Positions 2,631-28,620 of a stretch of 35,431 bases of DNA are shown here, in pieces. The stretch is from Patescibacteria group bacterium. GTDB lineage: Bacteria; Patescibacteriota; Minisyncoccia; UBA6257; MFKM01. The stretch's first letter is position 1. Every line of letters begins with the position of its first letter. Both the position numbers and the translations under genes were made by a program. The stretch spans positions 1 through 35,431 of the forward strand of contig JBBTRS010000007.1 of assembly GCA_038065115.1 (NCBI GenBank). The letters are read 5' to 3'. The notes under the pieces are model-generated. The model ran no database searches and was not told the DNA's origin. It saw only the letters and a list, made by a program, of their open reading frames with translations.

Positions 2631-2700
2631 TGGTGGGTGAGGGAGGGATCGAACCTCCGACCCCTGCCTGCCGGCAGGCAGGTCTGTCTTATCAGGACAG
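2631..2700 (-). pseudogene. Duplicated 3' portion of tRNA-Ile(GAT) carrying a 20-bp palindrome in the variable loop
   Basis: Repeats the anticodon arm, T arm and CCA of the adjacent tRNA. CCTGCCTGCCGGCAGGCAGG is inserted at 2663-2682. Confidence 0.8.
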
Positions 2701-2715
2701 TCCCGATTTATATTT

Positions 2716-2799: not shown

Positions 2800-3018
2800 T
2801 TAAGGAATTTTTATCAAATTTAATTTTTTAAATTCTTCTATATTGAAATGGGTTACGGCCGGCGCCTCCAAAACATTGGGGTTTAAAACAATGTTTAGGC
2901 GTTCCACGAGAAAACCCAATAACCACGATACGCTGATAATAAGAACAATTAACATTAAAATCGCGGCTATCAAAAAAATCAATTCTTGATGATATTTTAA
3001 TTGTTTTTCTTTGCCCAT
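2800..3018 (-). CDS. Small single-pass membrane protein, possibly pilus-assembly associated
   Basis: One long hydrophobic helix, directly downstream of the PilO-like gene. Confidence 0.6.
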   Translation of the reverse strand: MGKEKQLKYHQELIFLIAAILMLIVLIISVSWLLGFLVERLNIVLNPNVLEAPAVTHFNIEEFKKLNLIKIP

Positions 3019-3051
3019 ATAAAATGCTTGCTAATTCGCCGTTGCTCTTTA

Positions 3052-3558
3052 CTAATGAAACAAAACATCGCCGTTAATATTAACCGATGAACCGCTAAGA
3101 TCAAAACTTTTAAAACCTATCAAAAAACGGCTATCTTCCATGGCTTTGATAAACTTAAAAATTTTTGACAAAGAACCTCCGGTGGTAATGGCGAACTCAA
3201 TCCGACCCGCCGTGTTAGAACTTGACGGCGTCTCGTTTCCAAAACTAAAACCGAAACCGACGCCTTCCTGGGACGCCAATCTTTCTATTTCTTTAGGAAA
3301 ATCAAAAAGCTGGTCTCTGACCGGAAGCACATTGCCTAAAATACCCTGATAAGAATTAGCTTCCGTAAACTGACTTTGCAACTTCGCGAATAATGACAAT
3401 TCTTCGGAACGATCAACAAACTCCTGGCGTTGTTTTTTTATCGCTTCGGCCCGATTATTGATATCCCGGCTCAAAAAAATCAAACCTCCAACAGGAATCA
3501 AGAGCGTCAACAAAATAATCAATATTTTTTTAATCAAACCTTGCTTAAAATTGACCAT
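3052..3558 (-). CDS. PilO/GspM-like type IV pilus assembly protein
   Basis: N-terminal TM, coiled coil, then LP...IERLA...GV and G-S-L..FI..ME..RF pattern typical of the PilO ferredoxin-like domain. Confidence 0.6.
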   Translation of the reverse strand: MVNFKQGLIKKILIILLTLLIPVGGLIFLSRDINNRAEAIKKQRQEFVDRSEELSLFAKLQSQFTEANSYQGILGNVLPVRDQLFDFPKEIERLASQEGVGFGFSFGNETPSSSNTAGRIEFAITTGGSLSKIFKFIKAMEDSRFLIGFKSFDLSGSSVNINGDVLFH

Positions 3559-14139: not shown

Positions 14140-14508
14140 TTAGACAACTTCCTCGGCCATAGTTATGATTTTTTCAAAACCTTTTTCTTTTAATTCTTGG
14201 GGAATTGGACCGAAAATTCTGGTTCCCCGAGGCTCTTTCTTGTCGTCAATCAAGATAGCGGCGTTTTCGTCAAAACGGATGTAAGAACCATCAAGCCGCC
14301 GCAATGGCTGGCATTGTCTGGCGATAACCGCTTTCACCACATCCTTCTTTTTCACTCCCTTTCTGGGTTCGGCCGTTCTTACTGAAGCGATAATGATATC
14401 GCCAACCCTGGCATAGCGCCTTCCGGTCCCGCCTAAAACCCTGAAGCATCGAATAATCTTTGCTCCGGAATTGTCAGCTACTTTTAATATTGTTCGTTCT
14501 TGAATCAT
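14140..14508 (-). CDS. rplN: 50S ribosomal protein L14
   Basis: [26 protein letters not shown] and GTRIFGP. Confidence 0.98.
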
Positions 14509-14509
14509 A

Positions 14510-14645
14510 CCCAGTAGTAGAAACTCGATAATTATTTGTAATAATTTAACCTTTTATTGATAATCATTGTTTTGTTTGATTGCCAGGCTTTTAGTTTAAA
14601 CTCTTTGTTCGCCTTTGGCGAACTAATCGAGTTTTCACTACTGGG
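14510..14645. mobile_element. MITE-like inverted-repeat element at the rplN start codon
   Basis: Ends CCCAGTAGTAGAAACTCGAT and ATCGAGTTTTCACTACTGGG. Flanked by CATA on both sides (TATG on the coding strand). Same ends as 24388-24534. Confidence 0.75.
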
Positions 14646-14691
14646 CATATATTTTAATATCTAAAGAAATAAAAACTGAAGTTTGTTCATT

Positions 14692-23966: not shown

Positions 23967-24386
23967 TTAAGACTGTTTTTTGGGTCTTTTAGCTCCGTAT
24001 TTTGACCTTTGTTGCTTCCGGCCATCCACTCCCGTGGTATCCAAAATACCGCGAACAATGTGGTATCTCACGCCAGGCAAATCTTTTACCCGGCCGCCAC
24101 GAACCAAAACCACCGAGTGTTCCTGAAGCTGGTGCCCTTCCCCGGGAATATAAGCGGTTACTTCCATTCCGTTGCTTAACCGCACCCGAGCCACTTTTCT
24201 TAAAGCGGAATTCGGTTTTTTGGGGGTAGTGGTAAAAACTTTCAAACAAACTCCCCGCTTAAAAGGCGAGATTGATAAAGTGGGACGATTTTTTAAATTA
24301 TTGAAATAACGCCCCAAGGCCGGGGTTTTCTTTTTTCTAACCGATTTCTTTCTTCCTTTTTTAATTAATTGATGAATCGTGGGCAT
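23967..24386 (-). CDS. rpsL: 30S ribosomal protein S12
   Basis: [22 protein letters not shown] and [13 protein letters not shown]. Confidence 0.98.
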
Positions 24387-24387
24387 A

Positions 24388-24534
24388 CCCAGTAGTAGAA
24401 ACTCGATTTAATTAAATTCTTTTTTTTGATGACCTTTGCCAATAAATAAGCTTGGATTGGTTTTCTAAATTATACCCCATAGGAAAACTTTATGAATTTA
24501 ATCTAAAAAAAGCAATCGAGTTTTCACTACTGGG
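24388..24534. mobile_element. MITE-like inverted-repeat element at the rpsL start codon
   Basis: Same ends as the rplN element (CCCAGTAGTAGAAACTCGAT and ATCGAGTTTTCACTACTGGG). CAT (ATG) on both sides, unrelated interior. Confidence 0.75.
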
Positions 24535-24562
24535 CATTGATCTTTAAAATTGATATTCAATA

Positions 24563-27051: not shown

Positions 27052-27104
27052 CGGGCTGTAGTATGCCGGCAGCCTGCCTGCCACAGGCAGGCACGCATGC
27101 ATGG
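27052..27104 (+). pseudogene. Diverged duplicate 5' half of tRNA-Pro(GGG) with palindrome insertion
   Basis: CGGGCTGTAGTATGCCGGCAG[CCTGCCTGCCACAGGCAGG]CACGCATGCATGG aligns with CGGGGCGTAGTATATTGGTAG-TACGTATGCATGG of the intact gene. Confidence 0.7.
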
Positions 27105-27120
27105 CCCAACACTAAAATTT

Positions 27121-27194
27121 CGGGGCGTAGTATATTGGTAGTACGTATGCATGGGGTGCATATAGGCCGAGTTCGATTCTCGGCGCCCCGACCA
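27121..27194 (+). tRNA. tRNA-Pro(GGG)
   Basis: CGGGGCG/CGCCCCG acceptor stem, TATGC-ATGGGGT-GCATA anticodon arm, CCGAG-TTCGATT-CTCGG T arm and ACCA end. Confidence 0.92.
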
Positions 27195-27270
27195 AGTTAG
27201 GCATTTTATTTATCATCGGGGGTCTCAATTTTTGATTGGGATTTTTTTATTTTATTGATATAATAAGAAA

Positions 27271-28227
27271 ATGGATAACTCGACGCCAATCAGAATTTCC
27301 CCGAAGCATGTTTTCCTTCATTTGTTCGCCATTATCATGCTTTATTCAAGCGCGGCTAATCTCCTGACTCTTATTTTCCAATACATAAACGTTTTGGCGC
27401 CGGACAGTCTCTCCCAAATCGGATATGACCAGACTTCTCGTTATCAAGACTTGATAAGATTTTCAATTTCTTTCATCGTTATCGTTTTTCCCGCTTTGGT
27501 TTGGATTTCTTGGTTTCTGGACAAAAATTATAAAAAAGAGCCCGAGGTAAGAAATATGAAAATAAGAAAATGGCTTATTTACTTCACTCTTTTTATAGCG
27601 GGTCTTATTATAATCGGCGACCTAATAGGCATTATTCGGAGTTTTCTGGGAGGCGAAATCACAATCCGCTTTATCTTGAAATCTCTTTCCGTGTTTTTCT
27701 TGGCTGGCCTAATTTTTGGTTATTATCTTTGGGACTCAAGAAGGGAATTTCCTTCCGCGAATAAAAAACTGAAATATTTTGTTTGGATTGTTTCCGGCCT
27801 GGTAACAGCTGTCGTTATAACCGGATTTTTCGTTATCGGTTCTCCCGCCAAAGAAAGAACCAGGCGCTTTGATCAGCAAAGAGTAAATAATCTGCAAAAT
27901 ATCCAGTTTGAAATCGTAAATTATTGGATCAATAAAAGAGTTCTGCCCGAAAACCTTTCCGCTCTGGAAAATAGCATTAGCGGCTACAAAGCGCCAACAG
28001 ACCCCCAAACCAACGAGCCATACGCTTACAGCGTCAAAGGCTCCGAATCATTTGAATTATGCGCCGTCTTTAGTCTGGCTGATAATTTCCCTCAAAATTT
28101 AGAGCCAAGAGCGGTAAAACCGATAGAAGGCGGCTATGGTCAAAACTGGCAGCATAACGCCGGAAAAACATGCTTTGAAAGAAAGATAGACAAAGAATTA
28201 TATCCTTTAAGAGAGAGGGGCGATTAA
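27271..28227 (+). CDS. Multi-pass membrane protein (DUF5671-like) with C-terminal pilin/GspG-like segment
   Basis: PKHVFLHL, IRKWLIYFTLF, FLGGEITIRF, then R..RFDQQRV..L..IQ..I..Y and DP.T..PY.Y...FELCA.F. Confidence 0.7.
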   Translation: MDNSTPIRISPKHVFLHLFAIIMLYSSAANLLTLIFQYINVLAPDSLSQIGYDQTSRYQDLIRFSISFIVIVFPALVWISWFLDKNYKKEPEVRNMKIRKWLIYFTLFIAGLIIIGDLIGIIRSFLGGEITIRFILKSLSVFFLAGLIFGYYLWDSRREFPSANKKLKYFVWIVSGLVTAVVITGFFVIGSPAKERTRRFDQQRVNNLQNIQFEIVNYWINKRVLPENLSALENSISGYKAPTDPQTNEPYAYSVKGSESFELCAVFSLADNFPQNLEPRAVKPIEGGYGQNWQHNAGKTCFERKIDKELYPLRERGD

Positions 28228-28243
28228 TCTCCGGATATTAAAC

Positions 28244-28453
28244 CAGGGTGTAGCTTAATACGGGCAGAGCTCTCGGCTTGCCCCCACACTAATTAATGGA
28301 CAGCTATTCTTTCCGGAGCCAAAGTTGTATTCAAAATAACAAAAGCTATATTGGTTTGGCTATGTTTATAGAATACATTTTGCTTCGCAATCCACTATTA
28401 GTGTGGGGGCTTGAGGCCGAAAGATGAAGGTTCAAATCCTTCCATCCTGACCA
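28244..28453 (+). tRNA. Interrupted tRNA with Pro-like body and reconstructed anticodon TGA (possibly pseudogene)
   Basis: 5' part CAGGGTGTAGCTTAATACGGGCAGAGCTCTCGGCTTG and 3' part AGGCCGAAAGATGAAGGTTCAAATCCTTCCATCCTGACCA. Acceptor, D and T stems pair. 133 extra nt lie in the anticodon loop. Confidence 0.75.
28281..28409. mobile_element. 129-bp inverted-repeat element in the tRNA anticodon loop
   Basis: Perfect 13-bp ends CCCCCACACTAAT and ATTAGTGTGGGGG, extendable imperfectly. CTTG direct repeat at 28277-28280 and 28410-28413. Confidence 0.8.
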
Positions 28454-28474
28454 AGCTCTTTAAAATATTTTTTA

Positions 28475-28499
28475 AAAACCTCCGCTTGAAGGAGGTTTT
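28475..28499 (+). terminator. Intrinsic terminator after the interrupted tRNA
   Basis: AAAACCTCC-GCTTGAA-GGAGGTTTT. Confidence 0.7.
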
Positions 28500-28562
28500 A
28501 TTTATTTCGGCGATAAAATTGCCGAAATTTATTGAGAATTATTAGTTTAAAATTATTTTTAT

Positions 28563-28604
28563 TTTACTATTGTAATTCCACGATCGTGGAATTACAATAG
28601 TAAA
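28563..28604. repeat. Perfect 42-bp palindrome upstream of tatD
   Basis: TTTACTATTGTAATTCCACGA|TCGTGGAATTACAATAGTAAA. Confidence 0.9.
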
Positions 28605-28620
28605 CAAGAAACACAGAAAT

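Follow-up and report, generated by a model that had tools for sequence, protein, structure and literature searches.

Can a tRNA gene that is split within its anticodon loop by a hairpin-forming insert still yield a tRNA, the insert being removed as an intron of a new kind would be, or has a mobile element put the gene out of use? The question is raised by a locus in the stretch of DNA analyzed here (the window), which is 35,431 nt long and represents contig C7:1-35431 of G000, a metagenome-assembled genome of 590 kb (589,828 nt; 37 contigs; 40% G+C; 95.7% complete). The bacterium is uncultured, and the metagenome runs that contain its contig are from groundwater. The evidence given below makes it quite probable that the split gene is a redundant tRNA gene inactivated by a MITE-like insertion. 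The insertion most likely killed a spare tRNA, and it probably does not represent a new kind of tRNA intron. Comparisons were made with G001 and G003, which belong to the same genus as G000; with G031, of another family in the same order; and with L088 and L091, metagenome contigs that contain the split-tRNA locus.

Organization of the split tRNA gene

The initial annotation described a cloverleaf with encoded CCA and a terminator, cut after anticodon-loop position 35 by a 129-bp inverted-repeat insert between CTTG direct repeats. The sequence confirms this description, and the features of the locus are as follows:

28244-28453, + strand: split tRNA gene, a cloverleaf with CCA encoded
28244-28280, + strand: tRNA 5' part, comprising the acceptor 5' strand, D arm, anticodon stem 5' strand, and loop positions 32-35
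28277-28280, + strand: left target-site duplication, CTTG, which forms loop positions 32-35
28281-28409, unstranded: hairpin element, MITE-like, family A, non-coding, 129 bp
28281-28293, + strand: left terminal inverted repeat, CCCCCACACTAAT
28397-28409, + strand: right terminal inverted repeat, ATTAGTGTGGGGG
28410-28413, + strand: right target-site duplication, CTTG
28414-28453, + strand: tRNA 3' part, comprising the AGG loop remnant, anticodon stem 3' strand, variable loop, T arm, acceptor 3' strand, A73, and CCA
28451-28453, + strand: encoded CCA
28475-28506, + strand: terminator-like hairpin (28475-28499) with a T run, 3' of the tRNA gene

The variable loop has 4/5 nt, and the T arm is canonical, with the T loop TTCAAAT. 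The gene begins 16 nt 3' of the stop of an upstream DUF5671 ORF, and no promoter-like site was seen between that stop and the gene. It was missed by ARAGORN with default settings and by Rfam; with introns allowed, ARAGORN places a cloverleaf exactly at 28244-28453.

The insert lies inside no listed ORF of at least 60 aa. Its arms are 13 nt long and 100% complementary (14 nt counting the flanking G/C pair), and it folds as a single long rod (-52 kcal/mol; z = -8.0; equaled by 0 of 200 shuffles) that includes the internal stem TGTATTC/GAATACA recorded in the initial annotation. The entire 210 nt, tRNA plus insert, fold with z = -6.4. In the minimum-energy fold, the terminal helix of 13-14 bp lies stacked upon the anticodon stem, and the only bulge, of 3 nt, is on the 3' side.

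An assembly artefact or chimera, a concern raised by a metagenome-assembled genome of 37 contigs, has a practically negligible probability. Contigs of two other studies span the locus in its interrupted form with 0 differences to the window (X9 record 32, 27645-28592; X11 record 14, 27915-28516), so the interrupted locus is not an assembly artefact. Independent evidence comes from the homologous insert in G001 and L088. Among the contigs of four DNA runs, no joint skips the insert; rare variants drop out of contigs, and rare empty-site cells are possible. A joint from 27209 to 28235 in X12 (depth 2, side 25) is weak and was disregarded, since it probably belongs to another organism.

Repeat family A

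The insert is one copy of a multi-copy family, designated family A. The end CCCCCACAC[C/T][A/T]A was searched for throughout G000 as inverted pairs at a spacing of less than 400 bp. Fifteen pairs were listed, and one (C7 28002-28409) was left out as a chance pairing with 1 mismatch, leaving 14 inverted pairs of 29-286 bp on 12 contigs. A perfect direct repeat of at least 4 bp flanks 10/14 of these copies and none flanks the other 4/14; the duplications are TTTA, TAAA, CTTG (twice), CCTG, TTGA, and CAAA. It is the exact inverted pairs across the genome that carry the family signal, not the end motif alone in the window, where the 11-nt end motif with 2 mismatches allowed gives 5 matches against 5.5 expected by chance.

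The exact 12-nt end was found in 19/41 related genomes, with 22 matches in G000, 20 in G018, 15 in G037, and 12 in G031; the reversed pattern, used as a control, gave 0-2 matches per genome. In G031, six copies could be aligned with the insert along their entire length, the ends being invariant and the middle diverged, and these copies and the insert keep a subterminal GAAGC/GCTTCGCA motif. A further 11 copies, from G004, G005, G018, G037, and G039, have unrelated interiors; a perfect 4-bp duplication (TATA, TAAA, and CAAG occur) accompanies 7/11 and is absent from 4/11. Because copies share their ends and differ in their interiors, family A is defined by its ends; it has a 4-bp target duplication, and its content varies widely, from nearly nothing to a whole tRNA gene. 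The duplications TATA, TAAA/TTTA, and CTTG/CAAG may reflect a simple sequence preference.

Two of the 14 copies in G000 lie in anticodon loops of tRNA-Pro-type genes, at the same loop position, against ~0.007 expected (41 tRNA genes x 7 nt / 589,828 nt), which suggests a target preference; tolerance like that of an intron would account for it too. No tRNA gene was found at or inside the six G031 copies or the 11 copies of G004, G005, G018, G037, and G039, and the link between family A and tRNA genes was seen in this genus only. The copy at C8:353-491 was considered as a second split tRNA, since it shares the CTTG duplication, but the alignment places it in intergenic DNA, between the end of one gene and the ribosome-binding site of the next.

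Small size without coding capacity, inverted ends, a target duplication, multiple copies, and an empty orthologous site (described below) are five of the six properties by which a MITE was judged here, the sixth being an autonomous partner that has the same ends and encodes a transposase; the insert has these five. No description of family A was found in the literature searched, which does not prove that none exists. Two other copies lie within long open frames: a 102-bp copy at C30:6561-6662 is in frame and without a stop in a 750-aa ORF, to which it adds 34-35 residues, and a 29-bp copy at C10:5856-5884 occupies 33 bp of another frame together with its 4-bp duplication.

Orthologs, empty site, and redundancy

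In G003, the same neighboring genes flank an uninterrupted tRNA gene with the anticodon arm CTCGG-TTTGGGA-CCGAG, the anticodon UGG (Pro), C1:G72, and A73. The Rfam tRNA model gives this ortholog 60 bits, and the gene has no encoded CCA. The L091 contig has the same empty site as G003. G001 and L088 carry, in the same place, a homologous insert that is shorter (~80 nt). The first 15-18 nt of the split gene are identical in the G003 and G001 orthologs, and in neither G002 nor G004 could an ortholog be detected (best E values, 0.83 and 1.11). Flank identity is 0.75-0.76 between G000 and G001 and 0.56-0.64 between either of them and G003; as the G000 and G001 flanks are closer to each other than to those of G003, the simplest account is a single insertion in their common ancestor. 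A scan of metagenomes with a 23-nt pattern from the 3' exon returned 32 stretches, 2 of them from this gene and 30 from unrelated tRNAs. A 30-nt pattern that bears an extra C of G001, and so misses G000 and G003, matched 1/401 genomes, namely, G001.

C1:G72 and A73 are identity elements for bacterial ProRS. The split gene has C1:G72, A2:U71, and A73, and C1:G72 and A73 are also present in the three canonical Pro tRNAs of G000. A canonical tRNA-Pro(UGG) gene lies within a conserved Pro-Arg-Phe-Arg tRNA cluster in G000 (C29), G002, G003, and G004. Since G000 has this gene elsewhere, the split gene is a supernumerary, genus-specific paralog, and it could be lost.

These findings bear on two points of the initial annotation. 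It had suggested a mobile mini-element and a genome-wide search for its ends and for empty sites; the search yielded the 14 inverted pairs in G000, and the suggestion is upheld by a family of many copies that have inverted ends and 4-bp duplications, and by the empty site in G003. It had also named an intact redundant copy elsewhere, together with an absence of spliced reads, as the sign of a gene simply inactivated by a MITE, and the canonical gene on C29 supplies the first of these two.

Sequence change in the split gene

Relative to G003, G000 and G001 share a change of G36 to A and the loss of 1 nt in the 3' strand of the anticodon stem. An additional C separates the T stem from the acceptor stem in G001 and L088; in G001 the 5' CTTG is changed to TTCG, and in L088 the right arm bears an uncompensated change. 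Set against decay are three observations. The split gene keeps CCA and a terminator, whereas the intact G003 gene has no encoded CCA. Two pairs of the terminal helix have changed on both sides between G000 and G001 (T:A to C:G and A:T to G:C). Finally, the 3' part of the G000 gene, from the variable loop to the discriminator, is 29/29 identical to that of G003, with flanks at 56-62%, an identity that could reflect continued constraint. Between G000 and G001, the 3' part differs at 4/30 positions and the 5' part at 9/38, and the flanks differ at 24-25%; because these exons diverge about as much as the flanks, no significant constraint is seen since the insertion. By simple arithmetic, the chance that all four 3' changes fell on one branch is ~0.125.

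The same comparisons bear on a different function, in which the gene would encode a non-decoding RNA whose tRNA-like body and hairpin would serve, for example, as a handle for RNase P/Z at the 3' end, or as a stabilizer, of the DUF5671 mRNA. The 16-nt gap to the upstream ORF without a promoter-like site, the terminator on the 3' side, and the conservation of the acceptor and T arm with an anticodon loop free to vary would suit such a role, as would the nearly unchanged outer halves of a nested tRNA-Pro(CGG) gene (see below) in four genomes. We judge it highly unlikely: in G001, the T stem and the acceptor stem are separated by an additional base; G002 and G004 yielded no ortholog; and conservation between G000 and G001 is not significantly above that of the flanks.

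Repair of the RNA

If the insert were a removable intervening sequence derived from a MITE, the helix would extend the anticodon stem, an unnamed nuclease would excise the hairpin, and a ligase would rejoin the halves, by neither a ribozyme nor the endonuclease/RtcB route. Recognition would depend on the 13-14-bp helix that stacks on the anticodon stem, and this would explain why such inserts are tolerated in anticodon loops. Several features of the locus would accord with removal, namely, a helix that stacks on the anticodon stem with only one bulge of 3 nt; the preserved cloverleaf, CCA, and terminator; retention of the insert since before G000 and G001 separated, with two compensated pairs; the 29/29 identity of the 3' part to G003; and the enrichment of family A in tRNA anticodon loops.

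When the insert is excised in silico, the three registers yield UGA, GCC, or CUU; none is a proline anticodon (NGG), and the UGG of the ortholog is not restored. A36 is common to G000 and G001. No matches were found in G000 to the splicing endonuclease family PF01974, to RtcB (PF01139), or to the Rnl2-type and 2'-5' ligase families (PF09414 and PF13563), which is not proof of absence because the genome is only 95.7% complete. The minimum-energy fold, with its one bulge on the 3' side only, contains no bulge-helix-bulge motif. The exons and helix are damaged in G001 and L088, the gene is redundant, and the other copies of family A are ordinary insertions with target duplications, both intergenic and inside ORFs. 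Removal is thus quite unlikely on the evidence from sequence and predicted structure.

A search for the group I core (RF00028) gave no match in 28150-28550 at E values up to 10, and the matches found genome-wide are on contigs other than C7. The initial annotation had excluded a group I intron and a bulge-helix-bulge, and both exclusions hold; its alternative proposal of a new removable tRNA intervening sequence finds no support, given the anticodon that is never restored, the shared changes in the anticodon arm, the lack of matches to EndA, RtcB, and ligase families, and the redundancy of the gene. ARAGORN with introns allowed reported no such insert in other tRNA genes of G000. It also reported nothing at the G003, G001, L088, and L091 loci, a silence that is uninformative because Rfam gives the intact gene of G003 60 bits. 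A group I intron is present elsewhere in G000, at C6:2874-3204 on the - strand (L021), where Rfam Intron_gpI scores 73 bits over 2920-3180 within an ARAGORN call of tRNA-Tyr(GUA) with an intron of 245 nt; C26 carries another tRNA-Tyr(GUA) gene, which is uninterrupted.

When introns are allowed, ARAGORN reads the split locus as a tRNA-Gly(GCC) gene with a 131-nt intron after position 36. This register forms a perfect 5-bp anticodon stem with the loop TTGCCAG (ARAGORN -i), and the G000 assembly contains no other such gene, nor the neighborhood in which one would lie. We consider a glycine tRNA very improbable indeed. At position 26, the register can be fitted only with an additional base. The acceptor and discriminator are also wrong: C1:G72, A2:U71, and A73 in the split gene stand against GCGGG... 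and U73 in the Gly tRNAs of G000 and in tRNA-Gly(GCC) of G001 and G004, the Gly tRNAs of the genus having G1:C72, C2:G71, G3:C70, and U73. The same register in G001 gives TCGCC with C33, and G001 owns a canonical tRNA-Gly(GCC) gene. The G003 ortholog, for its part, has the anticodon UGG. Genes for Asn, Cys, Leu-UAA/UAG, and Val-UAC tRNAs are also missing from the G000 assembly, so the absence of tRNA-Gly(GCC) is probably an assembly gap.

Nested tRNA genes and tRNA remnants

The second family A copy in an anticodon loop is at C8:697-897 (L051), where a complete tRNA-Pro(CGG) gene is bracketed by the 13-nt ends of the family. This 109-bp unit (732-840), in which the tRNA is the sole gene, interrupts an older tRNA-Pro(CGG) gene at its anticodon loop; G002 and G004 have the older gene without interruption. 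The same nesting occurs in the same place in G003 (C17:3915-4100; L043), with the junction remnants CCCG ... TGAAGGT shared. The arms of the G003 nest (CCCCGTTAGAWAT) are not those of family A and belong to a second family, family B (CCCCGTTAGATAT), which is multi-copy in G002 and G003. The halves of the outer tRNA-Pro(CGG) gene are almost unchanged in four genomes. The copy without cargo is found only in a redundant tRNA gene, and the C8 copy brings a replacement tRNA; the pattern therefore fits an inactivating insertion and not a harmless intron.

Family B ends (CCCCGTTAGATTT ... AAATCTAACGGGG) also bracket a tRNA-Val(CAC) gene in G003 (C27:6164-6271; L094), in intergenic DNA 3' of the end of a ribosomal-protein-like gene. 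This tRNA looks like the cargo of a mini-element that is not nested in another tRNA.

Within the window, remnants of an older tRNA-Pro gene adjoin a working one:

27052-27120, + strand: 5' remnant of an older tRNA-Pro(GGG) gene, up to loop position 35 (ATGG), with a GC-rich palindrome
27105-27115, + strand: degenerate family A end, CCCAACACTAA, after the remnant
27121-27194, + strand: intact tRNA-Pro(GGG) gene, directly 3' of the remnant

The remnant at 27052-27120 agrees with the G003 and G001 genes over their first bases (CGGGCTGTAGTAT...), and no outer 3' half was seen. At C29:8613-8672 (- strand), the canonical tRNA-Pro(UGG) gene is preceded, at the syntenic site, by 16 nt from the start of an older, G004-like tRNA-Pro(UGG) gene together with 44 nt of unrelated sequence. 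As the C29 site shows the arrangement too, all three tRNA-Pro isoacceptor genes of G000 adjoin remnants of earlier copies.

A comparable arrangement involves isoleucine. At 2631-2715 (- strand), a second anticodon arm, T arm, acceptor 3' strand, and CCA of an older tRNA-Ile adjoin the intact tRNA-Ile(GAU) gene at 2716-2790, and a GC palindrome, CCTGCCTGCCGGCAGGCAGG, is inserted in the variable region of the remnant. ARAGORN with introns allowed mis-joins the remnant and the intact gene into an "intron" tRNA.

Proposed mechanism and comparison with known systems

In the account that we favor, a non-autonomous MITE-like transposon would have entered the CTTG in the anticodon loop of a spare tRNA-Pro(UGG) paralog, in the common ancestor of G000 and G001. 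The element, with 13-nt inverted ends and predicted to be rod-shaped if single-stranded, would have been moved by a transposase supplied in trans, the 4 target bases being duplicated at insertion. The RNA would go unrepaired, leaving the interrupted gene as a decaying pseudogene that may still be co-transcribed with the upstream gene.

Several known systems share parts of this picture. The Correia (NEMIS/CREE) and ERIC/IRU repeats are 100-150 bp long, with inverted ends, form long RNA hairpins when transcribed, and have a TA duplication; family A differs in its 4-bp duplication, and we know of no Correia or ERIC repeat in a tRNA anticodon loop. Group I introns in bacterial tRNAs resemble the insert in their anticodon-loop site; the insert, at 129 nt, is a simple rod with no core. 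The tRNA-dependent lysogeny of actinobacteriophages is similar to the nested tRNA-Pro(CGG) of C8 and not to the 129-bp insert; the phage case involves a whole prophage and a tyrosine integrase, whereas the C8 case is a 109-bp inverted-repeat unit with a tRNA only.

By analogy, the behavior of the insert appears closest to that of the Rickettsia palindromic elements (RPEs), which are likewise described as small, non-coding, palindromic, and multi-copy, and as occurring between genes, in frame within ORFs, and in RNA genes (PMC1166351). Of the 728 RPEs reported for R. felis, 85 lie within ORFs and 3 within genes for RNA (PMC1166351). Unlike RPEs, family A copies share only their 12-13-nt ends, sometimes with subterminal motifs, and have clear 4-bp duplications; the likeness is one of behavior, and no kinship in sequence is expected. 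The tRNA introns of Thermoproteales, which are reported to transpose between tRNA genes in or near anticodon loops (PMC10714607, citing Fujishima 2010), are similarly short and are described there as behaving like mobile elements. Archaeal tRNA introns depend on a bulge-helix-bulge, an endonuclease, and a ligase, whereas G000 is bacterial and none of BHB, EndA, and RtcB was found. IS1397 and other insertion sequences that target REP hairpins, as reported in PMC1525189, offer a possible precedent for insertion into a DNA hairpin loop.

Taken alone, the split gene would be an ordinary event, a small transposon disabling a spare tRNA gene. It has a practical side in that tRNA finders that permit introns can report such wrecks as false intron-containing tRNA-Gly genes in CPR genomes. 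The wider pattern in the genus, in which the 13-nt ends and those of a sister family bracket whole tRNA genes and old tRNA-Pro and tRNA-Ile remnants lie beside working copies, points to very small genomes in which tiny mobile elements drive the turnover of tRNA genes.

Other repeats

The window contains further inverted repeats. The initial annotation likened the insert to elements at rpsL (24385-24537) and rplN (14507-14648); the likeness holds for the general build and fails for the arm sequence. The rpsL and rplN elements have inverted arms of 23-24 nt (ATACCCAGTAGTAGAAACTCGAT...) that abut each ATG, and they belong to a family other than that of the tRNA insert.

Between the split tRNA gene and tatD, at 28556-28611, is a 56-nt palindrome (TTTTACTATTGTAATTCCACGA/TCGTGGAATTACAATAGTAAA) with arms 89% complementary. 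Metagenome contig depth leaps there to 173, versus ~11 (X9). In both G000 (C29) and G004, a near copy lies 3' of the canonical tRNA-Pro(UGG) gene. This palindrome is another multi-copy repeat.

A GC-rich palindrome of ~20 nt (CTGCCTGCC..GGCAGGCAG, with up to 2 mismatches) has ~30 copies in G000, a genome of 40% G+C. Examples are at 2664-2681 and 27074-27094 in the window and at C8:848-869. At least 5 copies are in tRNA remnants or tRNA-like sequence, and several lie inside the hairpin repeats at start codons.
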